64,000 nucleotides of DNA, taken from the NCBI RefSeq assembly GCF_964213995.1, contig NC_135804.1, positions 94,736,001 through 94,800,000 on the forward strand. The letters are read 5' to 3'. The stretch's first letter is position 1; every line of letters begins with the position of its first letter. Below the pieces are notes generated by a model that was given only the letters and a program-made list of their open reading frames with translations, was not told where the DNA came from and searched no databases. A program made the position numbers and the translations under genes. This DNA comes from Mustelus asterias (taxonomy: Eukaryota). Positions 8,380 through 58,100 of this stretch are shown here, in pieces.

Positions 8380-8744
8380 AGTACGTTGGGGTTGTAAACA
8401 AATGGGCAGATGAAGCTGGTTTTGTGCCTGTAGAGGGAAGTGTCGAGTATTGAAGGTAAGGGGGGGAAAAGGCAAGAGAGAGAAAGAGACGCAGGATCAT
8501 GAAGGAGGGAGGGAGCAGTGAGGGGAAGAAGAGGCGGAGGAGGAGGCAGAGGATGAGCCGTTTGCTGCTGTAGTCATCCTCTTGCTGAGGGAAAGAGCAG
8601 GGGGGGTGGGGGGAGGGGAGGGAAAGGAGGGAGGGGGGGGGGGGATTCATCTGTCTCTTGGGGGCTGTCATCCTTTTGAAGGAACACGGGCCCCGGCTTT
8701 CTAGCGGATCGGTGGAGGTGGCTGGGCCAGAGGAAGAGGAGATC
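8380..8744 (+). promoter_or_regulatory. Probable promoter/5' UTR of the host gene (GA/G-rich, G4-prone)
   Basis: Unique purine-rich sequence directly upstream of the coding exon; G-runs at 8600-8644; FOX-type TGTAAACA at 8393-8400. Transcription start cannot be determined from sequence. Confidence 0.5.
8499..8573 (+). other. Candidate uORF, 24 aa (MKEGGSSEGKKRRRRRQRMSRLLL), in frame with the main ORF
   Basis: GATCATG start context identical to the main ATG; TAG at 8571-8573; 246 nt upstream of ATG 8745. Confidence 0.4.
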
Positions 8745-8915
8745 ATGTTGGATTTCGTGATCCCGCTGAGTGCCAGCGCCAGGCTGGAGAAGCTGATCCC
8801 TCACATCGAGAGGCTGTTCAGGGTGAGGATCAGCGCCGGGCCTGCGGCCGAGAGCAGCCGGTGGATCCACATAGAGCAGGCGGCAGAGGCACAGGAGGGG
8901 CTGAGGAAAGCAAAG
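8745..8915 (+). CDS. KHNYN: First coding exon of a KHNYN/N4BP1-family protein (N-terminal KH-like domain)
   Basis: MLDFVIPLSASARLEKLIPHIERLFRVRISAG...RWIHIE...EGLRKAK resembles the recalled KHNYN N-terminus (PHVERIFSV...IWLQLEG...SRAK) and N4BP1. It ends in phase 0 at a consensus AAG|GTGAGT donor, the position where I recall exon 1 ending in this family. KHNYN versus N4BP1 is uncertain. Confidence 0.65.
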
Positions 8916-9271
8916 GTGAGTGAGTGAGTGTGTCCCCAGAGAGAAAACAACATCGCTAACCCCTTTAATCCCCCAAAATAATGATCATCTACTTAATTCA
9001 TTTTTAACTGTCCCTTTCCTTTTTATACCTGAAATTGTCTGCCAAGGTTTGAGGGTGAGGAGGGATATGAAACTGTACTTGTTGCTATGAGACGCACAAA
9101 TAGCACCACCGGGGCCTTTTTGTGCTGCATAAGTCATCCAGGCCTCTACTGTTGGTTATTGCTGGATTTTGCTCTTTGTGCTTGAGCTTGGAGGAATAAG
9201 CAATACATTTAGATTTGGTCTTTGTATATGAGCTTGGAGGAATAAGCGATACATTTAATGAAATACAAACA

Positions 9272-12113: not shown

Positions 12114-12347
12114 GCCGGTGGCGGAGGAGGATGTTGAATGTGGTGGATGGGGTCCAGTTAAGTGGGCTGCTTTGTCCTGGATGTTGTCACACTTCTTGAG
12201 TGTTGTTGGAGCTGCGCTCACCCAGGCAAGTGAAGACTATTCCATTGCGCACCTGACTTGTGCATTGTAGATGGTAAACAGGCTTTGGAGGAGTCAGGAG
12301 GTGAGTTGCACTCCACAGAATTCTCAGCCTCTGGCCTGCTGTTGTAG

Positions 12348-13125
12348 TCATGATGTGGAGATGCCGGCGTTGGACTGGGGTAAACACAGTAAGAAGTTTA
12401 ACAACACCAGGTTAAAGTCCAACAGGTTTATTTGGTAGCAAAAGCCACACAAGCTTTCGGAGCTCTAAGCCCCTTCTTCAGGTGAGTGGGAATTCTGTTC
12501 ACAAACAGAGCATATAAAGACACAGACTCAATTTACATGAATAATGGTTGGAATGCGAATACTTACAACTAATCAAGTCTTTAAGAAACAAAACAATGTG
12601 AGTGGAGAGAGCATCAAGACAGGCTAAAAAGATGTGTATTGTCTCCAGACAAGACAGCCAGTGAAACTCTTCAGGTCCACGCAACTGTGGGGGTTACAAA
12701 TAGTGTGACATGAACCCAATATCCCGGTTGAGGCCGTCCTCGTGTGTGCGGAACTCACAAGTTCCACACACACGAGGACGGCCTCAACCGGGATATTGGG
12801 TTCATGTCACACTATTTGTAACCCCCACAGTTGCGTGGACCTGAAGAGTTTCACTGGCTGTCTTGTCTGGAGACAATACACATCTTTTTAGCCTGTCTTG
12901 ATGCTCTCTCCACTCACATTGTTTTGTTTCTTAAAGACTTGATTAGTTGTAAGTATTCGCATTCCAACCATTATTCATGTAAATTGAGTCTGTGTCTTTA
13001 TATGCTCTGTTTGTGAACAGAATTCCCACTCACCTGAAGAAGGGGCTTAGAGCTCCGAAAGCTTGTGTGGCTTTTGCTACCAAATAAACCTGTTGGACTT
13101 TAACCTGGTGTTGTTAAACTTCTTA
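12348..13125 (-). mobile_element. Palindromic Penelope-like insertion (arms ~366 bp, centre ~12757)
   Basis: Identical peptides on opposite strands (12499-12684 - and 12831-13016 +); TSD CTGCTGTTGTAG. Confidence 0.92.
13031..13067 (+). ncRNA. Minimal type I hammerhead ribozyme (PLE-associated); mirror copy at 12448-12484 on -
   Basis: CAC-CTGAAGA-A-GGGGC(TTAGA)GCTCC-GAAAGCTT-GTG: conserved core boxes, stem II, palindromic AGCT in place of stem III, CAC/GTG stem I. Confidence 0.75.
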
Positions 13126-13140
13126 CTGCTGTTGTAGCCA

Positions 13141-13310
13141 CAGTAAGAAGTTTAACAACACCAGGTTAAAGTCCAACAGGTTTATTTGGTAGCAAAAGCT
13201 ACCAAATGTGTGGCTTTTGCTACCAAATAAACCTGTTGGACTTTAACCTGGTGTTGTTAAACTTCTTACTGTGTTTACCCCAGTCCAACGCCGGCATTTC
13301 CACATCATGA
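13141..13310 (+). mobile_element. Mini fold-back Penelope-like insertion
   Basis: Inverted arm plus sense arm with tail; TSD CTGCTGTTGTAGCCA at 13126-13140 and 13311-13325. Confidence 0.9.
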
Positions 13311-14338
13311 CTGCTGTTGTAGCCAAAGTATTTACATGGCTGGTGTTTAAAACAACTCAAACACTAAGCCTTCCTAAATACAAAATATAACTGCCTCATT
13401 AACACTTTGTTTTAGTGAGAAGTAAAAGTGAAGGCCCAAAGTGCAGGACACCACTGAGGTTAAATTAAAAGAGAAAATTCATCACATCAAGAATTATCAA
13501 TTGAGCTGTGTCAAGCATGTGTTTAAATGCTTGGGGTTTATAGAAGCAAAGAAAGAAGTGCAGAGGTCTGTGCTTTGAGGTCCTGCATTAGTTATAGATT
13601 GCATGATAATCGATGAGTACCATGGAGTTGGACTGACTGAGGTGCAACCAGCAACAATCACCACCCCACTTCCCTGACAGTAAACAAAATGGTTTGTTGG
13701 CAGACTCTGAAAATTAATCAAAAGAGTCATATTTGTTTGTGGTACATTGGTTAGTGCACTTCAGATCCTTGAAAGAATTGGCCTCTGTACATTGATTGCA
13801 ATGAAGACTGGTTTCATTTTTATTGAAGTTTTTTCTCTAATCGCCACATTCTGTTTAAAGGAGATGAGCAGTGGATTCTCAGAATTAAACATTGAAGGAC
13901 TTGATTAATTATTCGATCTTATCTTCTTGTAAGGTGCTCAAGTCTTAGAGGCTGTGAGGCTTCGCTGAGCGGTGAATAGTTGAAACAAAGATAAATGTTA
14001 TGCGCAAAATGTAGATGGGAATAAATGGCAAAATTGTTTGACTGCCTTGTTGGGTTTTTGCTCAGAAATGTTTTGAAAATCATTTGTAAAATAATGTGTT
14101 TGCTTCATTATAAATATTGAAACTATTAAGAACAATGATGATTTGAAGAGCTCTGAGTAACATTAACTGATAGAAACAACATACTTTGGATCATTGGGAA
14201 AGAATATAAAATCTTCCAAATTTGCATATTTCCAATCTGTGAACATAAATACAATCACAAAGGTCTGCTGTGAGATTTCACTTTGAAACTGTAGGTAAAA
14301 ATCAGAGGTCTTTGAAAATTCCTGACAAGTATGATCTT

Positions 14339-38442: not shown

Positions 38443-39218
38443 TCAAGGGGGTTGTTTTAGATGATCTCACAGAGGCAGTCCCAAAACAGTAGGGTGCATG
38501 TGGTCTGGAGAAGGGGAAGGGCAAAGTCGATAAAGGGCACGAGGACATCAACATTATAGGAAAGGCAATGTTAGGAACAAAGGGTGGAATTCCCGATAAC
38601 AGTCGGGAAAGTCGGCATGATTTCTGCTGGGTGACAGGGCAGGTGAACACATGCGGTCTTCCACTTTTCAGCTCATGCATTAGTATGGAGCTTGGCAAAT
38701 CTCTTGGCAGGGTCGGCAGGAGGTTTCTTGCCCTGCCATCACCTCATGGGATGGAGATGCTGGCATTGGACAGGGGTAAACACAGTAAGAAGTCTCACAA
38801 CACCAGGTTAAAGTCCAACAGGTTTATTTGGTAGCACAAGCCACTAGCTTTCGGCCCTTTGTCAGGTAAGTCATGGGGCCAAAGGTCCTGGTATCATATT
38901 TAAATGGCGCCCAGACTGACATTCACTCATCGCAGATCAGGAGCTCCATACTGCTCGTCCAGAGCCCTTGCAGCTGCAGATCTTAGTGGAGAAGCTGGCA
39001 GATATGAGCAACTGCATCACAGAATGTACAAGGGTTCCTCTGGCGTTGTCTTTCACTCATCTCTAGATAAGAGCACCAGCTGCGATCGGGTCAATGTTCA
39101 GCAGCCTCTTGACTGTCTAGAGGCCCTGCTGCTTCTTGCTGCTCAGGTCTTTGCACTTCCTAGCCCTGTCAGCCTGTGGTGGGTCTTCCTTCTCCTCATC
39201 TGGATGAGAGTCATTGCC
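38443..39218 (+). repeat. Direct duplication, copy 1 (includes a truncated PLE end at ~38750-38870)
   Basis: Near-identical to 39731-40517; near-identical ORF pairs in the track. Confidence 0.95.
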
Positions 39219-39730: not shown

Positions 39731-40517
39731 TCAAGGGGGTTGTTTTAGATGATCTCACAGAGGCAGTCCCAAAACGGTGGGGTGCATGTGGCCTGGAGAA
39801 GGGGAAGGGCAAAGTCGATAAAGGGCACGAGGACATCAACATTATAGGAAAGGCAATGTTAGGAACAAAGGGTGGAATTAAGTCCGATAACAGTCGGGAA
39901 AGTCGGCATGATTTCTGCTGGGTGACAGGGCAGGTGAACACATACGGTCTTCCACTTTTCAGCTCATGCATTAGTATGGAGCTTGGCAAATCTCTTGGCA
40001 GGGTCGGCAGGAAATTTCTTGCCCTGCCATCACCTCATGGGATGGAGATGCTGGCATTGGACTTGGGTAAACACAGTAAGAAGTCTCACAACACCAGGTT
40101 AAAGTCCAATAGGTTTATTTGGTAGCACAAGCCACTAGCTTTCGGAGCGCTGCCCCTTTGTCAGGTAAGTCATGGGGCCAAAGGTCCTGGTATCATATTT
40201 AAATGGCGCCCAGACTGACATTCACTCATCGCAGATCAGGAGCACCGTACTGCTCGTCCAGTGCTCTTGCAGCTGCAGATCTTAGTGGAGAAGCTGGCAG
40301 ATATGAGCAACTGCATCACAGAATGTACAAGGGTTCCTCTGGCGTTGTCTTTCACTCATCTCTAGATAAGAGCACCAGCTGCGATCGGGTCAATGTTCAG
40401 CAGCCTCTTGACCGTCTAGAGGCCCTGCTGCTTCTTGCTGCTCAGGTCTTTGCTCTTCCTAGCCCTGTCAGCCTGTGGTAGGCCTTCTTTCTCCTCATCT
40501 GGATGAGAGTCATTGCC
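39731..40517 (+). repeat. Direct duplication, copy 2
   Basis: Matches 38443-39218 with scattered substitutions and ~11 extra bases. Confidence 0.95.
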
Positions 40518-45515: not shown

Positions 45516-47342
45516 ATAGTAATTACACAGTCTTAACCATCTGAGGGAGCACTTGGAGAATGTTCTCAGCTTATTGAATGAAATATCTTGCCAATGTGTT
45601 ACCATGTTCATCATTTTTGGTTTCATTTATTTAACTGTTCCTGTTTGCTCGTTCACCTTCCCATTGCTATTCATGGAATATACTGAGGAGTTATATCAGG
45701 ATTTTCTATTTTTAGTAAAAGGAACTGGCCTTTACTCCAGGAATAACTAATACTACCTCACACCATCAGTGTGGTAAAATATGCTGAGGCACTTAACAAC
45801 GAGCAGGATCAAACATCACACACCATGGAATTGGGAAAAGGGTTGGCGTGTGAATAATGGAAGAGATAAATTGATGAGGCTTTTGAAGAGAGGAAAAGAT
45901 GTTGAAAAGTGGATCGAATGAAGAATAAATGTCCAGTTCTCGGTCGAGGGCCACAATAGATGAAAAACTCCGAACTGGAGAGAACTAAACTCCGAACGGA
46001 AATAGCAGCCCAGAATCAGAAGAATGGAGGCTGTAGTTCCAATGGTATAGGGCGCAATGCCCAATCTGTTTGTAAATAATGGTGAAGATTTTGAAATCTT
46101 TATGTTAGAAGATGGCAAGCCAGTGGGGGTGATGGTTATTGCAGGAGTTCATAGACTATGAGATTGATAGTTATGTCTGTTATGACTGTTGATGTATGCA
46201 GGTTGCCTCTGTTATATTCCAGCAAGCCAAATGGTGAAGGATAGAACTAGAGCCAATCTTAACGCGCTTTTATAAGCATTTATTTACAGGTAAACATTAC
46301 AAACACAGACCTGCTAACCTGCTCACCACCTGCATCTAATTAAACACACATAATATACAATGAACAGACTCCTTGGGTGAAAATGAATCTGGGTCAATGA
46401 AAAACAGGACACAAGTGCAATGAGATTGAGAATGAGAATGAAACAGGACACAAGTGCAATGCCTGAGAGACAAAATCAATCTGCAAACCTTTACAGATCA
46501 ATAGATAATTTTTAACTGGGAAAGCATCAGCTCATCTTCCACTCACCAAGCTCTCTCTGGTCTACATAACATGTTTGTCCCTCCTAAGTAGCTGCCACAT
46601 CCTAGTCCCAAGTTTCACAATCGGGTTAGTACCTGTTCCCCAACCAGACATCAAACACTCCTTGTGTCGTTTATTCTACTGATTTTTTTGCAACAATAAA
46701 AAAATGCTTGGCAGCTCATCAGCATTTGAAATAGAAAGGAAAGTTTTATATTTTGGGTGAACCCAAATTGTCAGGGAGTGGATGAGCCACAACTTTCTTC
46801 AATTTCAGACTGGTGTGATCAAAGCTCAAAGAAACCTGTTTTGTTACAGGCTGAAACTCTGCTCCTGATTCCATTCATATCAACATTTGTCCACTTAAGC
46901 TGAATCTGACAGAAATTTAATCTTGGTGTTTGAAGCCCATACCCTACCCATTATCAAAAGCCTTGCTTGTCTCTGCCCATATATCATCCCATCTGACACT
47001 TAAACCTTCACCTATACTTTAATCTTCCTCAGATTTGACTACTGCAATTTTGTCAGGTTTCATAATTCCACTACATACAAACTTCAATAAAAGCCAAATA
47101 CTGTGGATGCTGAAATAAAAGCAGAATCCTGCCCACCCATCATTTGACTTATTTAAAATGTCTTTGTTGCCCACCCCCCCTCCACTCCCCAACCCCCCCA
47201 CCCCCCTATATCCTCCAGTTCTTTGGCACATCTTTCCATTTTCTTCAAGAAGAACTACCTGGGGCATGGTTGATTGTAATCAATACTGGTTGTTAATTTA
47301 TTTTTCGAGGTAACATCGATCCTTCCTGCTGAAAATAAATTA

Positions 47343-48502
47343 GGTAAGAAGTCTCACAATACCAGGTTAAAGTCCAACAGGTTTATTTGGTCGCAAATAC
47401 CAAAAGCTTTCGGAGCACTGCTCCTTCGTCAGATGGAGTGGAAATTTGCTCTCAAACAGTGCAAACAGACACAAAATCAAGTTGCAGAATACTGATTAGA
47501 ATGCGAATCCCTACAACCAGCCAGGTCTTAAAGATACAGACAATGTGGGTGGAGGGAGCATTAAACACAGGTTAAAGAGATGTGTATTGTCTCCAGACAG
47601 AACAGCTAGTGAGATTCTGCAAGCCCAGGAGGCAAGCTGGTGGGGTTACTGATAATGTGACATAAATCCAACATCCCGGTTTAGGCCGTCCTCATGTGTG
47701 CGGAACTTGGCTATCAGTTTCTGCTCAGTGACTCTGAGCTGTCGTGTGTCGTGAAGGCCACCTTGGAGAACGCTTACCTGAAGATCCAAGGCTGAATGCC
47801 CGTGACTGCTGAAGTGCTCCCCCACAGGAAGAGAACAGTCTTGCCTGGTGATTGTCGAGCGGTATTCGTTCATCTGTTGTCGTAGCGTCTGCATGGTTTC
47901 CCCAATGTACCATGCAGACGCTACGACAACGGATGAACGAACACCGCTCGACAATCACCAGGCAAGACTGTTCTCTTCCTGTGGGGGAGCACTTCAGCAG
48001 TCGCAGGCATTCAGCCTTGGATCTTCAGATAAGCGTTCTCCAAGGTGGCCTTCACGACACACGACAGCGCAGAGTCACTGAGCAGAAACTGATAGCCAAG
48101 TTCCGCACACATGAGGACGGCCTAAACCGGGATGTTGGATTTATGTCACATTATCAGTAACCCCCACAGCTTGCCTCCTGGGCTTGCAGAATCTCACTAG
48201 CTGTTCTGTCTGGAGACAATACACATCTCTTTAACCTGTGTTTAATGCTCCCTCCACCCACATTGTCTGTATCTTTAAGACCTGGCTGGTTGTAGGGATT
48301 CGCATTCTAATCAGTATTCTACAACTTGATTTTGTGTCTGTTTGCACTGTTTGAGAGCACATTTCCACTCCATCTGACGAAGGAGCAGTGCTCCGAAAGC
48401 TTATGGTATTTGCTACCAAATAAACCTGTTGGACTTTAACCTGGTGTTGTGAGACTTCTTACTGTGTTCACCCCAGTCCAACGCCGGCATCTCCACATCA
48501 TC
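47343..48502 (+). mobile_element. Palindromic Penelope-like insertion (arms ~550 bp, centre ~47903) with GIY-YIG C-terminus
   Basis: YIGETMQTLRQRMNEHR...PVGEHFS...EQKLIAKFRTHEDGLNRD on both strands; TSD GAAAATAAATTA at 47331-47342 and 48503-48514. Confidence 0.95.
48370..48406 (+). ncRNA. Minimal type I hammerhead ribozyme (also at 54417-54453 +, 55047-55083 +, 53449-53485 -, ~47400-47436 -)
   Basis: CCAT-CTGACGA-A-GGAGC(AGT)GCTCC-GAAAGCTT-ATGG; stem I covaries with the CAC/GTG version. Confidence 0.78.
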
Positions 48503-48859
48503 GAAAATAAATTAACCAGCTTGATCTGACACTTCCTGTCATTATTTGTGGAATTGCAGTGGTTCAGGAATAAAATAGGGTGTATGTTTAGAGTGATAAT
48601 GAAGAAAGTACGAAGATACATACTTTGTGTAGGTCCCAAAATTCCAGTCATTGGTTTTCACTTGTTATTGAAGATGGCTGCTTCTCACATACACACAGTC
48701 ATTTGTTGTGCATTCCAACATGGCTGATGGCAGATTGTAGCCATGCATGGCTTTCCACAGTACGGGCAAGGATGAATTGTCTGATTTTGTTTAAACAGCC
48801 TGGTATTTCTAGCTTGCCTTTGTCCTTAGCTGCCAGTATTCTTTGCTATTCTAAGGAAA

Positions 48860-52930: not shown

Positions 52931-53392
52931 AATTCCAATAAATACGCTGAAAAGTGTCAAGAAACAGAATATTCTTGGATGGAGTGAGTGAGGTTGTTAA
53001 ATTCCAATGGAAAATAAATCTCATGATCTCAGAATTCACAACTTCCTCAAAGTTGTGCTTTATGGACTATAATAATGGTGATAGCAGGTTAAATGTGTAA
53101 GTTATGTGAAGTCTGTGACCCACCCACTAGCAACGGTGGCACAGTCATTACCTAAGCCCTATATAAGGCAGGTCCAAGACTGGGCCTGCTGAACTGTCGT
53201 CCCAGCCAGGGACTAGTTGTGTATACCACGGCAGTAGTTTTACTTTGCATTCTGTAATGAACTATGTTCCTTTCCAGTCGGACTTTCTGAGTTATTACAA
53301 TGGAGCTAGACATTCTAGCCTCAGGCCTGCTTCCATCTCTTGCACTGCCTCCCCAAAGCAAAAATGCTGTATGCAGTGGTCCTTTATATAGA

Positions 53393-55183
53393 GTAAGAAG
53401 TCTCACAACACCAGGTTAAAGTCCAACAGGTTTATTTGGTAGCAAATACCATAAGCTTTCGGAGCAATGCTCCTTCGTCAGATGGAGTGGTCTCTGTTCT
53501 CAAACAGGGCACAGACACAGAAATCAAATTACAGAATACTGATTAGAATGCAAATCTCTACAGCCAGCCAGGTCTTAAATGCACAGACAATGTGGGTGGA
53601 GGGAGCATTCAACACAGGTTAAAGAGATGTGTATTGTCTCCAGACAGTACAGCTTGTGAAATTGTGCAAGTCCAGGAGTCAAGCTGTGGGGGTTACTGAT
53701 AATGTGACATAAATCCAACATCCCGGTTTAGACCGTCCTCATGTGTGCGAAACTTGGCTATCAGTTTCTGCTCAGTGACTCTGCGCTGTCGTGTGTCGTG
53801 AAGGCCGCCTTGGAGAACGCTTACCTGAAGATCCAAGGCTGAATGCCCGTGACTGCTGAAGTGCTCCCCCACAGGAAGAGAACAGTCTTGCCTGGTGATT
53901 GTCGAGCGGTATTCGTTCATCCGTTGTCGTAGCGTCTGCATGGTTTCCCCAATGTACCATGCAGACGCTACGACAACGGATGAACGAACACCGCTTGACA
54001 ATCACCAGGCAAGACTGTTCTCTTCCTGTGGGGGAGCACTTCAGCAGTCGCAGGCATTCAGCCTTGGATCTTCAGATAAGCGTTCTCCAAGGTGGCCTTC
54101 ATGACACACGACAGCGCAGAGTCGCTGAGCAGAAACTGATAGCCAAGTTCCGCACACATGAGGACGGCCTAAACCGGGATGTTGGATTTATGTCACATTA
54201 TCAGTAACCCCCACAGCTTGCCTCCTGGGCTTGCAGAATCTCACTAGCTGTTCTGTCTGGAGACAATACACATCTCTTTAACCTGTGTTTAATGCTCCCT
54301 CCACCCACATTGTCTGTATCTTTAAGACCTGGCTGGTTGTAGGGATTCGCATTCTAATCAGTATTCTACAACTTGATTTTGTGTCTGTTTGCACTGTTTG
54401 AGAGCACATTTCCACTCCATCTGACGAAGGAGCAGTGCTCCGAAAGCTTATGGTATTTGCTACCAAATAAACCTGTTGGACTTTAACCTGGTGTTGTGAG
54501 ACTTCTTACTGTGTTCACCCCAGTCCAACGCCGGCATCTCCACATCATCGAAAATAAATTAACCAGCTTGATCTGACACTTCCTGTCATTATTTGTGGAA
54601 TTGCAGTGGTTCAGAATGAACACCGCTCGACAATCACCAGGCAAGACTGTTCTCTTCCTGTGGGGGAGCACTTCAGCAGTCACGGGCATTCAGCCTTGGA
54701 TCTTCAGGTAAGCGTTCTCCAAGGCGGCCTTCACGACACACGACAGCGCAGAGTCACTGAGCAGAAACTGATAGCCAAGTTTCGCACACATGAGGACGGT
54801 CTAAACCGGGATGTTGGATTTATGTCACATTATCAGTAACCCCCACAGCTTGACTCCTGGACTTGCACAATTTCACAAGCTGTACTGTCTGGAGACAATA
54901 CACATCTCTTTAACCTGTGTTGAATGCTCCCTCCACCCACATTGTCTGTGCATTTAAGACCTGGCTGGCTGTAGAGATTTGCATTCTAATCAGTATTCTG
55001 TAATTTGATTTCTGTGTCTGTGCCCTGTTTGAGAACAGAGACCACTCCATCTGACGAAGGAGCATTGCTCCGAAAGCTTATGGTATTTGCTACCAAATAA
55101 ACCTGTTGGACTTTAACCTGGTGTTGTGAGACTTCTTACTGTGCTTACCCCAGTCCAACGCCGGCATCTCCACTTCATGACTA
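53393..55183 (+). mobile_element. Composite palindromic Penelope-like insertion with captured genomic segment (~53909-54614)
   Basis: TSD CCTTTATATAGA at 53381-53392 and 55184-55195; outer arms match each other, and the middle matches 47862-48567. Confidence 0.92.
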
Positions 55184-58100
55184 CCTTTATATAGAAACAG
55201 ATCTGCTAAGTTGGGAAATTTCCCGACTCGACCTTCCCGCCTTGTCACTTGTGTTCTCTTATCATACATCCATATTCAGAGCTGTTTTTCAGCTGTTAGT
55301 AGTCTTGAACCTATGTCAATATTTTAAAAGTTGTTGGTGAGCTTTTGCTAGTTTTTGAGGTTGGCCAATATATACAATTTAATTTCTTCTAGATTCTACC
55401 ATTTCCATATATTAAAGCCTATAAACAGCCCATTCAGAAGTGGATGTTTTTTTATTGATGGATTGAAAAGCTTTAGCTAATTTAGATTGGTTCTGAATGT
55501 AGGGACACTGTTGGATGTTGGAAAGTCTGATTAAAATACTATGCTTTCCCCACCAAGGGGTGCAAGTGAGCTGATGCAGTAGCTAGTAGAAACTTCATAC
55601 TATATTCATTTCAAACTGCTATAGTAGAATTTAACATGAATGTGAATGTTGAAGTGTGCACAAAAGTAATATTCATTTCACATTAAAACCCAAAGTTGAG
55701 CACTTTGCTCACCTCTCAGAACATTTTATTTGAAGTTAGTAGAAGGGGCTTCCAAACATGTTACATTTTATGTGGGAAGACATTCCAAGTCTTTGCAGAG
55801 GCATGTTAAAAACTGGACACCGAGTCAAAGGAAGGAAGGCTTGATAAGGGGGACCAAATACTTGATTTAAAGAGGTGAGTTTTAAAAGAATAGGAAAGTT
55901 GAGGTGTTTTTAGGAAGGAAATATGAGAGAGTTGGACCTATAACTAAAGGAAGAGCTCCCAGTGGTGAAGTGAAGGAGGGGATGTATACAAGGTTGGATT
56001 AAGAAGAATGGAGAATTGTACAGCCAAAGGAAGAAACCGAGATGGAGAGGATGCAACCTGAAATATGTTTATCTTGGTAATTTATTTCATTTATGTGATG
56101 TGAACATAGCTGGCATTTATTGCCCAGTGTTGATTGCCCTTGAGAAGGTGATGGTGAGTTGGTTCCTTCAGCCTATGCAATAATGATGCCCCTACAGTGC
56201 TGTTAGGTACAGAGTTCCAAGATATTGAATCAGCAACAATCAAGCAATGGCTATATATTTCCAAGTCAGGATGATGTGTGACCTGCATCCTGATCCATAA
56301 GCATTACCTCCAATGAACTGAATGTGGGATCACCTGAGGCCTGCCACATATGTTTTGTCCACATGTCCGTACTCAATACTAGCTCAAGGTCATTCTCATT
56401 CTTGACCATAATTTTGAGAAAAATGATCTGATTTAATTGTATACTATAACTTCTTGGGTTGTAACTCATAAAAATCATCCTACATAGAAATTACAGTGCA
56501 GGATCAGACCATTCAGCCCATTAGGGCCATGCCAGCATTCATGTCCAATGGAGGACTCTTTTGACCATTCTCCTCTAACCCTATCAACATATCCTTCTAT
56601 TCCTTTCCCTCTCATATTTCTCTAACTTTTCTTTTTCTACATTAATGCTCATCGTCTCAAATATTTATTACCGTAGGGTGTTCCACATTTGGGTAAAGAA
56701 GCTTCTCCAGAAATACCTATTGGATTTATATAGTTACTGTTTAGATTTATTGCTCCTTGTTCTGATATCTCACACAGATGGAAACATTGGCCAAGATTTT
56801 CCTGGCACTATGAGGATGGGTTCAGACATGCGAAGGCTGCCAGAATGGCATTTGAAAGTATCAGGTGATAAGACATTTGGTTCTGCCCTGAGCCCGATTG
56901 AGCACTTAATGACGAATTAAGGGCCTCTTCCTGCCTCTGGTTGCATTTTGACTCAGTGAACCAATGATTCAGTTACTAGCCCTCCTACCTCTAAGCCAGA
57001 AAGCCCTGGCCCCCACTTCAGGATTTGGGTGGCCACAGTGCATTTGTGCAGCTTTAAGTAGATTGGTAATCAGCTTGCAACTTATTTCCAACATTCCACA
57101 CTGTTCTCTAATGGAGAAAAGAATGTGAAGACATACGAAACAAGCAAATTTTTTGGCTACAAAGAGCCCCATATCTACTGTGACTTTGGTGCCACTTGCC
57201 CTCCCTGTTCCCTCTCTGTTTCCTATCCCAGCCCCCAGCACCCATGTCTGTCCCTGGCAGTGAGTGTACATGTCTCTCTCTCTCAATGTGTCCTCTTCCA
57301 GTTGCAGTTTGAATAGTGGCCATGGCTGCTGGTGACATTGCTGAGATGCTGGCCCTCTGACTGGGCTGGCAACTTTTCTTGGCAGACCGTTGTCTTCAAT
57401 GGACAGTAGTCTCTGTGGCTGCCACCTGTAAAGTGTGGCTTTGGGTCCTGCACTCTGCTTTTGGCCCTGGCGGTGGGGGGACCCATACAGTGATGTTCTT
57501 TGTTTCGGCTGTGCTTTCAGGTAGTGAGTTTCAGACCCCTACCAGCCTCTGGGAGGAAAAAAGTTTTCCTCAGCTCCTCTCTAATACTTCTGCCAATTAC
57601 TTTAAACCCTTGATATTGGTTTTTCTAATAAGGGAAATAGGTCCTTCCTATCCACTCCCTCTGGGCTCCACTTTGCCAGCCCCTTGGGACCTCTCCACCT
57701 CTGGAAGCTGTATGCACCTGCCCTCCTCTAGTGGGTTCTGTTCTCCCACCGGGGGCCCTGTCATGACGGACAATCTAATGGGAGGGGGGTGTGTCTGTGT
57801 GTGTGTCTGTGTGTGTCCATGTCCCCAGAGCAGTAGCCTGGCCCTCTACGTTACTAGCCCAACCATCTCCCCCGTCAGCAGGCTTTACAGCAAGTGTATG
57901 TGCAAACTTAACAATCTCAGTAGAGGGATTTTACAAACCAGTTTTGCAGAGGAAAAAAAATAAAATGGAAGCAGCCTTTTTAAGAAAGGCTCAGAAGAGA
58001 GACTTTTGTCTTTAAAAAAAAGGCCACAATAAAGAATTTTAGAAAGCCCATGTTGTGATGGCCGCAGGGATCGTAGAATACGAGCTCCCCTATAAGGCAA

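Follow-up and report, generated by a model that had tools for sequence, protein, structure and literature searches.

Copy of a local donor at the centre of a two-armed Penelope-like element insertion in a shark intron

Our combined findings show that an insertion of a Penelope-like element (PLE) in an intron of Mustelus asterias carries at its centre a segment copied from an older PLE locus 6047 bp upstream, including host sequence that flanks the donor. Copying from this local donor in cis, as an earlier note on the same DNA had proposed, is well supported by the uniqueness of the copied flank, by bases private to the donor, both at 53911 and within the sense arm, and by the presence of a single composite in the genome (positions are those of the window, the whole stretch of 64,000 nt that was analysed; negative or higher coordinates extend the same count beyond it). 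We consider it somewhat probable, at about 0.55, that host DNA repair linked two target-primed cDNAs and, in doing so, copied the closest homologous locus, either during integration or shortly afterwards. The composite itself is a single event, intronic and without evident functional effect.

Structure of the composite insertion

The structure was established by self-BLAST and alignment. The acceptor insertion lies between two plus-strand copies of a 12-bp TSD, CCTTTATATAGA (53381-53392 and 55184-55195), and its outer arms belong to a young subfamily. The left arm (53393-53807, minus strand) is tail-less and was presumably a cDNA primed from the top strand, and the right arm (54615-55183, plus strand) is 5'-truncated, bears the tail and was presumably primed from the bottom strand. 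From 53393 to 53910 the left side agrees at every position (518/518) with the right arm read in reverse complement, bearing out the earlier description of matching arms of one subfamily within one TSD; the one alignment difference between the acceptor arms, 53911, lies within the copied tract.

The donor is also a two-armed insertion (47344-48501), placed between plus-strand copies of the TSD GAAAATAAATTA at 47331-47342 and 48503-48514. Its tail-less antisense arm (47344-47915, minus strand), of an older subfamily, differs from the partner arm at 12 of 524 alignment columns; the sense arm with the tail (47909-48501, plus strand) contains the C-terminal GIY-YIG part and a 3' region with a hammerhead-like core. 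Beyond the right TSD lie the 53 nt of unique host flank that were copied (48515-48567, plus strand), for which a genome search returned two places only, the donor and the copy.

In the acceptor, the plus-strand tract 53911-54614 is a copy of 47864-48567 and comprises the end of the donor left arm, the fold-back junction, the sense arm, the TSD and the 53-nt flank. The match is free of gaps, keeps a constant offset of 6047 and ends at 54614, which corresponds to 48567. Its left end is less sharp: 53807 is the last acceptor-type base and 53911 the first donor-type base, and the interval of the homologous acceptor-to-donor switch (53808-53910) is without informative sites. The left switch is thus only bracketed, and the copied tract measures 704-807 bp. 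The earlier note had given the donor segment as 47862-48567; offset and right end stand, and the SNP-level mapping that it suggested places the switch between 53807 and 53911, so that the left end is a bracket (53808-53910) rather than a point.

The whole sense arm of the other subfamily was copied, as claimed, over 593 bp at 99.5% identity to that of the donor, together with the donor TSD and a flank that the note had put at ~50 nt; in all, 65 nt of non-PLE sequence were copied at this locus. The next-best copies of the sense arm are 97.1% identical (the donor's own inverted arm, in 664 kb) or 98.3% identical (among genome-sampled loci). The base at 53911 is private to the donor left arm, with its 18-nt context present elsewhere only in four copies of a distant subfamily, and 53915 carries the base of the donor subfamily. 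Where the note had seen a few substitutions between donor and copy, we counted four, at 47875 (donor-private) and at 53996, 54102 and 54124 (copy-private), three of which are CpG transitions.

The two ends of the tract differ in kind. On the left, the switch falls in ~100 bp of identical sequence within arms that are 93.5% identical, whereas the right join shows microhomology of 1 nt (G), or of GAAT if one G was lost (1-4 nt). A strand switch driven by homology, as had been suggested, is therefore apt for the left end and not for the right, and the event is one-sided, homologous at its left end and microhomologous at its right.

The new junction was found at one place in the genome, even with one mismatch allowed (this count and that of the flank hold within the stated limits of the genome search). 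The earlier note had held that a composite present at many unlinked loci would point to ordinary transduction from a master copy; it is present at one place genome-wide. Transduction of a pre-existing composite master, or nesting of one insertion in another, is to us the least credible origin. Rearranged palindrome derivatives do exist at more than one unlinked locus (L045, L053/L054), as does a nested insertion with a TSD (185083-185314), but against this stand the two places of the flank and the one of the junction, and a middle segment that has no TSD of its own and starts inside homology. Nor does the arrangement correspond to 3' transduction, as the flank is internal and joined to the 5'-truncated arm of another subfamily.

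The fold-back junction was expected to be the same in donor and copy, and it is present in both, but it is not diagnostic, because it rests on a 7-bp inverted repeat that belongs to the element itself (GCATGGT-11 nt-ACCATGC, 53938-53962) and is a recurrent junction hotspot, and because the exact junction occurs at 12 places in the genome. Several of these are independent palindromes, including three of other subfamilies (L046, L048 and L049), and the composite is absent from all 10 other places that carry the junction. We thus discarded the common fold-back junction as proof of copying.

The 9-mer TGCAGTGGT, which the note had placed immediately left of the acceptor TSD, does abut it (53372-53380, plus strand) and has a second copy at 54602-54610. 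A match of this type at random end points has a chance of 0.03-0.9%, depending on the definition used, for a match that was picked post hoc, and the 9-mer does not recur at the four other captures described below. Endonuclease site preference was rejected as its source, as the motif is not evident by eye beside the surveyed TSDs and is absent from those four captures. It could allow a strand derived from the donor to pair with the nicked target end, under a DNA or an RNA template, or be a coincidence.

That the middle is an assembly artefact, either another haplotype of the donor or a copy of it joined at the wrong place, is very improbable. Palindromes are described as hard to assemble (PMC8557442), and the junction 54614/54615 is not among the read-contig matches listed for four runs over 54549-55750. 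Against an artefact, three of the four differences are CpG transitions, and both donor and copy have a share of the differences. In addition, the TSD is complete, the junction connects non-homologous sequences at a microhomology, four other junctions contain local captures of a similar kind, and the contig is of chromosome scale (152.9 Mb). In read run X1, perhaps from the assembled sample, one contig spans 55156-55750 without differences, with only 28 letters on the arm side (the rule being 31). A contig match in run X5, from organism B, starts at the TSD (55184) after 118 unaligned letters, which fits an empty site, and a joint row of equal depth hints at a short PLE piece; runs X3 and X4 barely cover the flanks.

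Host gene and neighbourhood

The genes of the neighbourhood are ZC4H2 (minus strand), a ZC3H12B/N4BP1-like gene (plus strand) and LAS1L (minus strand), and the closest named proteins are from sharks and rays. The first coding exon of the ZC3H12B/N4BP1-like gene is at 8745-8915 (plus strand) and the next exon only begins at 78650, so donor and acceptor both lie inside intron 1 of this plus-strand gene. An N4BP1-type KH domain is encoded N-terminally in the first coding exon (8589-8924), and the gene is annotated as ZC3H12B in a ray.

We found 58 PLE clusters within 664 kb of contiguous sequence, which extrapolates to ~3 x 10^5 clusters per genome. Their density is higher in the window, at 10800-64000 (16 clusters in 64 kb, ~3x that of the flanking 400 kb with 31 clusters). 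At 12344-13312, two tandem PLE palindromes occupy a single target, whose word occurs in three copies (left, middle and right), an insertion repeated at one site. A direct local duplication of 96% identity (38443-39218 and 39731-40517) includes a PLE end. Elsewhere, in a provirus-like sequence (L020:4518-9926), the pol and env-like frames are long and open (Pfam RVT_1, RNase H, TLV_coat).

Identity of the element

Judged from its predicted protein, the inserted element is an EN+ PLE, probably of the Neptune type. Its arms encode the C-terminal part of a GIY-YIG endonuclease, and the arm peptide is 89% identical to the C-terminus of a natural RT-EN frame of 967 aa located 185 kb away. This frame (L004:3084-5984) matches RVT_1 with E=1e-9 and has a VY...YIG motif; it is open from stop to stop (967 residues) and lies inside a 4-kb inverted structure with arms 99.5% identical. 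The GIY-YIG domain had no match in Pfam, and a PDB search gave only a weak one, to endonuclease II (E=0.89). The frame does have the CCHH motif with two cysteines between GIY and YIG (VYLIRCKKGCPEAWYIG at residue 867, the histidines identified by eye), described in PMC8557442 as a mark of EN+ PLEs, and its RT-EN linker contains a CX2-5CxxC motif (CHSNLCKTC at residue 829), which according to the same source is present in Neptune and Nematis and absent from Penelope and Poseidon. Our first label, the Poseidon clade, was given up in view of this linker cysteine motif. The motif points to Neptune or Nematis, between which we take Neptune to be the right name from the host group.

The copies themselves look like PLE copies, being inverted and 5'-truncated, with a tail at one end and a TSD, in line with the description in PMC8557442 of such copies with a tail of 30-40 nt. 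A hammerhead-like core, CTGACGA...GAAA with a helix between, is present at 55051-55075 (cf. PMC4209133), with a fold z-score of -1.29; no HHR match was found in Rfam, where the search gave matches at chance level only. Exact matches to subfamily markers number 820 for the acceptor and 202 for the donor in the 3.68 Gb genome.

Formation of two-armed insertions

We surveyed 51 independent young insertions sampled across the genome (60 loci less nine duplicate views) in 3-kb views; seven are truncated at the edge of the view and about a quarter are without a TSD call. TSDs are mostly 11-14 bp long, and in two-armed copies one arm bears the tail and the other is tail-less. In three copies (L063, L077 and L087) the tail arm is only a stub of 7-12 nt at the tail start, opposite a long arm. 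A related PLE protein is reported to cut and extend both strands in vitro, with two RT start sites that bound the tail (PMC11167929). On the strength of the TSD lengths, the tail-bearing and tail-less arms, the stubs and this two-strand extension, we infer that the two arms are separately primed cDNAs joined centrally (twin priming). Self-priming has been proposed for PLE palindromes (PMC3846280), and the route to inverted and tandem PLE insertions is called undefined in PMC8557442; the stubs and fixed ends appear to fit twin priming better than self-priming. Three sampled loci (L061, L093 and L105) contain internal, inverted pieces of the element and resemble template switching within the element RNA.

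Local capture at other junctions

The earlier note had suggested a search for PLE palindromes whose spacers match nearby sequence. Our survey of the contiguous 664 kb covered 33 head-to-head junctions in 31 clusters, the studied insertion included. Overlap without a spacer was seen at 20/33, and spacers of at least 10 nt at four of the 32 other junctions, all four with their best match 0.76-2.6 kb away and a length of 18-102 nt. These are 24 nt at -158663 (donor 0.85 kb to the right, direct), 18 nt at 167819 (2.6 kb to the right, direct), 19 nt at -333149 (2.6 kb to the left, inverted) and a repeat fragment of 102 nt at -294157 (0.76 kb to the right, inverted; 96% identical, the next copy reaching 91%). 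In the first three cases, control matches in 46 tiles of 14 kb extended over at most 13, 12 and 15 nt, respectively; the 24-mer has a further match of 21/22 at 85 kb. With the studied insertion, local capture is found in ~1 in 7 two-armed insertions of the 664 kb (5/33) and is thus not a one-off but a small recurring local pattern. The idea that PLEs duplicate local host sequence is in this sense borne out, with the qualification that the host DNA involved is small (18-102 nt) and that this type of event is known from L1. It also seemed that all captures might be direct repeats, which was dismissed, as two of five are inverted.

Among the 51 young insertions, a traceable local capture was found only in L116, where 22 nt were copied from the flank of a neighbouring insertion 0.7 kb away; none held the studied composite, and the capture rate in young copies may be lower than 5/33. 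L116 has identical PLE arms 0.7 kb apart (1474-1703 and 2201-2424), the first carrying a copy of the left flank and TSD of the second at its 5' join, so that the pair is a linked double event or a local copy. Spacers of 13-14 nt at L045, L053/54, L064 and L105 are below traceable length. The unlinked loci L045 and L053/L054 have one rearranged PLE derivative in common, alike in its internal inversion and its spacer of 13 nt, which suggests a palindrome-derived, non-autonomous form that was remobilised. A LAS1L intron contains a young-subfamily palindrome (L035, 184558-186226), and nested within one of its arms is a short palindrome from a different subfamily, which has its own TSD.

Timing of the capture

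The acceptor outer arms differ at 0/519 sites and donor and copy at 4/704 (Fisher p=0.14). For comparison, young-subfamily arms deviate from the majority base by 0.59% on average (77/12992, 36 arms), and eight pairs of arms from the same insertion differ at 11/1818 sites, one pair (4/136) being left out as it was taken to span two separate insertions. The probability of all four changes in the copy is 0.11, 0.027 and 0.004 for a copy/insertion age ratio of 1, 0.5 and 0.25, respectively, where donor polymorphism or error-prone synthesis could inflate the donor-copy differences. By these counts, a capture at or soon after integration fits, in agreement with the switch during integration that the note had envisaged, and the same counts speak against a capture that came long after the insertion.

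The structure alone fits both repair during integration and repair of a palindrome break soon after. In the latter case, a simple perfect palindrome would have broken at its centre as a hairpin or cruciform, followed by one-sided invasion of a nearby copy and end joining. Long perfect palindromes are fragile, and this route would give the same final structure. A copy several hundred bases long is also in keeping with SDSA tracts as described in PMC7407515. The 0/519 and 4/704 differences speak against it, with the probability falling from 0.11 at equal age to 0.027 at half age, as do the many near-perfect palindromes of this PLE family that are unbroken (the 20 of 33 junctions without a spacer). 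We therefore regard such post-insertion repair as quite unlikely.

Template and mechanism

In the reading that we favour, repair from a DNA template, the PLE enzyme would nick both strands 12 nt apart and one cDNA would be made per nick, the right arm from the tail site and the left arm from the tail-less site. The two 5'-truncated cDNA ends would then face each other and need joining, and host repair would copy local DNA into the gap. The end of the left arm would pair by homology with the closest copy, which lies 6 kb upstream, and ~0.7-0.8 kb would be synthesised, running through the donor junction and sense arm and on through the TSD into 53 nt of the flank. After release, the strand would fold back so that the left arm pairs with the copied sense arm; the non-homologous tip alone would stay unpaired and would be attached, through a microhomology of 1-4 nt, to the cDNA of the right arm. 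This fold-back may explain why there was no collapse of the duplicated arm onto the right arm, to which it is 93% identical, and the nearby homologous donor may be why the copied tract is long. In a mirror route with the same product, the right-arm end would be primed by microhomology on resected DNA, copy leftwards and anneal to the left arm. The DNA template, the enzymes and the direction of synthesis are, like the twin priming, proposals in this scheme.

No long homologous arm lies closer to the acceptor than the donor; more similar arms in the 664 kb are only found 130 kb away, and donor-type arms are rare, going by their 202 exact marker matches in 3.68 Gb. Several points count against this reading: templates of published L1 templated insertions are much nearer to the site than this donor, the 9-mer does not recur, L116 alone among the 51 young insertions showed a traceable local capture, and donors are upstream in 2/2 genic captures.

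An RNA template is a reading that we judge unlikely. Here the PLE RT, extending the right arm, would jump to nascent ZC3H12B pre-mRNA just downstream of the older PLE and copy leftwards through flank, sense arm and junction, and the strand would anneal to the left-arm cDNA. Both loci are in one intron of a plus-strand gene with compatible polarity, the donor RNA includes the element's own 3' region, and the copy shows one A>G substitution. There is an L1 precedent in the co-insertion of pre-mRNA in one adenoma clone (PMC10191854), and the 9-mer might, speculatively, pair such RNA with the strand end at the nick. The capture in a LAS1L intron (160.5-175.6 kb) has its donor upstream in the same intron too, so that this holds for both genic captures (chance 1 in 4).

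The earlier note had asked whether donors lie in the same transcription unit; this is so for these two, but the three other captures are situated at least 89 kb past the final ZC4H2 coding exon, and a scan of 115 of 2786 ORFs showed no coding exon near them. The copied tract is without an exon junction. An ADAR signature has been described in L1-made cDNA (PMC11702581), but hyper-editing of the ADAR type is not seen here: the tract, which as RNA would form a duplex of 550 bp, has a single A>G change in 170 A. Two of the spacers are patchworks of repeated pieces, resembling DNA end-joining; direct and inverted repeated patches are given as a signature of synthesis-dependent end-joining in PMC7407515. 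Moreover, a random jump that lands 65 nt from a homologous arm needs extra assumptions.

A bolder form of the same idea is likewise doubtful. It would have the PLE RT switch regularly, where the two cDNAs of a twin-primed insertion are joined, to the unspliced host transcript being made upstream of the break. If true, it would make cis retro-duplication of intron-containing local sequence routine and could be the way in which PLEs came by the intron-retaining host captures known from the literature.

Comparison with known systems

In the main texts of papers, mainly outside subscription journals, we found no report of kilobase-range local capture at PLE junctions or of PLE twin priming. Non-PLE sequence between PLE repeats inside a TSD, with palindromes at inverted junctions, is described for Adineta vaga (PMC3846280); it is read there as trans-mobilisation, whereas the shark donor is local, in cis and entered through homology. 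SD-MMEJ/polymerase theta templated insertions and SDSA, as presented in PMC7407515, share the direct and inverted patches, the microhomologies and D-loop tracts of several hundred nt, and differ in that the shark substrate would be a retrotransposition intermediate, with the enzymes inferred.

Closer parallels come from L1, for which twin priming and template switching are described (PMC13174262). In L1 twin priming, cDNAs from two target nicks are likewise joined centrally, resulting in an inversion, but the second primer anneals internally at variable sites; both PLE arms start at fixed 3'-end sites ~40 nt apart (tail and tail-less), which gives head-to-head inverted repeats. The L1 pre-mRNA co-insertion noted above is similar in that local sequence within a transcription unit was co-inserted; it is a single somatic case, and an RNA template is only a candidate in the shark PLE.

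The insertion and its neighbours point to PLE arms as separately primed cDNAs and to a central join left to templated repair that reaches 0.8-6 kb from the site, and the shark genome offers thousands of natural junctions at which DNA and RNA templating could be told apart by donor side, strand and editing. The nearest likeness is to L1 templated insertions and SDSA-type chimeric L1 (bioRxiv 10.1101/2024.08.27.596794, citing Gilbert et al. 2005; PMC11702581), in which a genomic segment is duplicated inside a TSD-flanked retro-insertion, the cause proposed there being that nascent cDNA pairs with nearby homologous DNA. The L1 insertions are typically <250 bp and within 15 bp of the site (bioRxiv 10.1101/2024.08.27.596794), although longer-range cases may be present in figures S9-S10 of PMC11702581 or supplementary figure 4d of the preprint; the shark PLE took 704-807 bp from 6 kb away into the centre of a two-armed insertion, and its four other captures came from 0.76-2.6 kb. 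By analogy, then, capture by the shark PLE would work like the templated or SDSA-type capture of L1, and would differ from it in element, size and distance.
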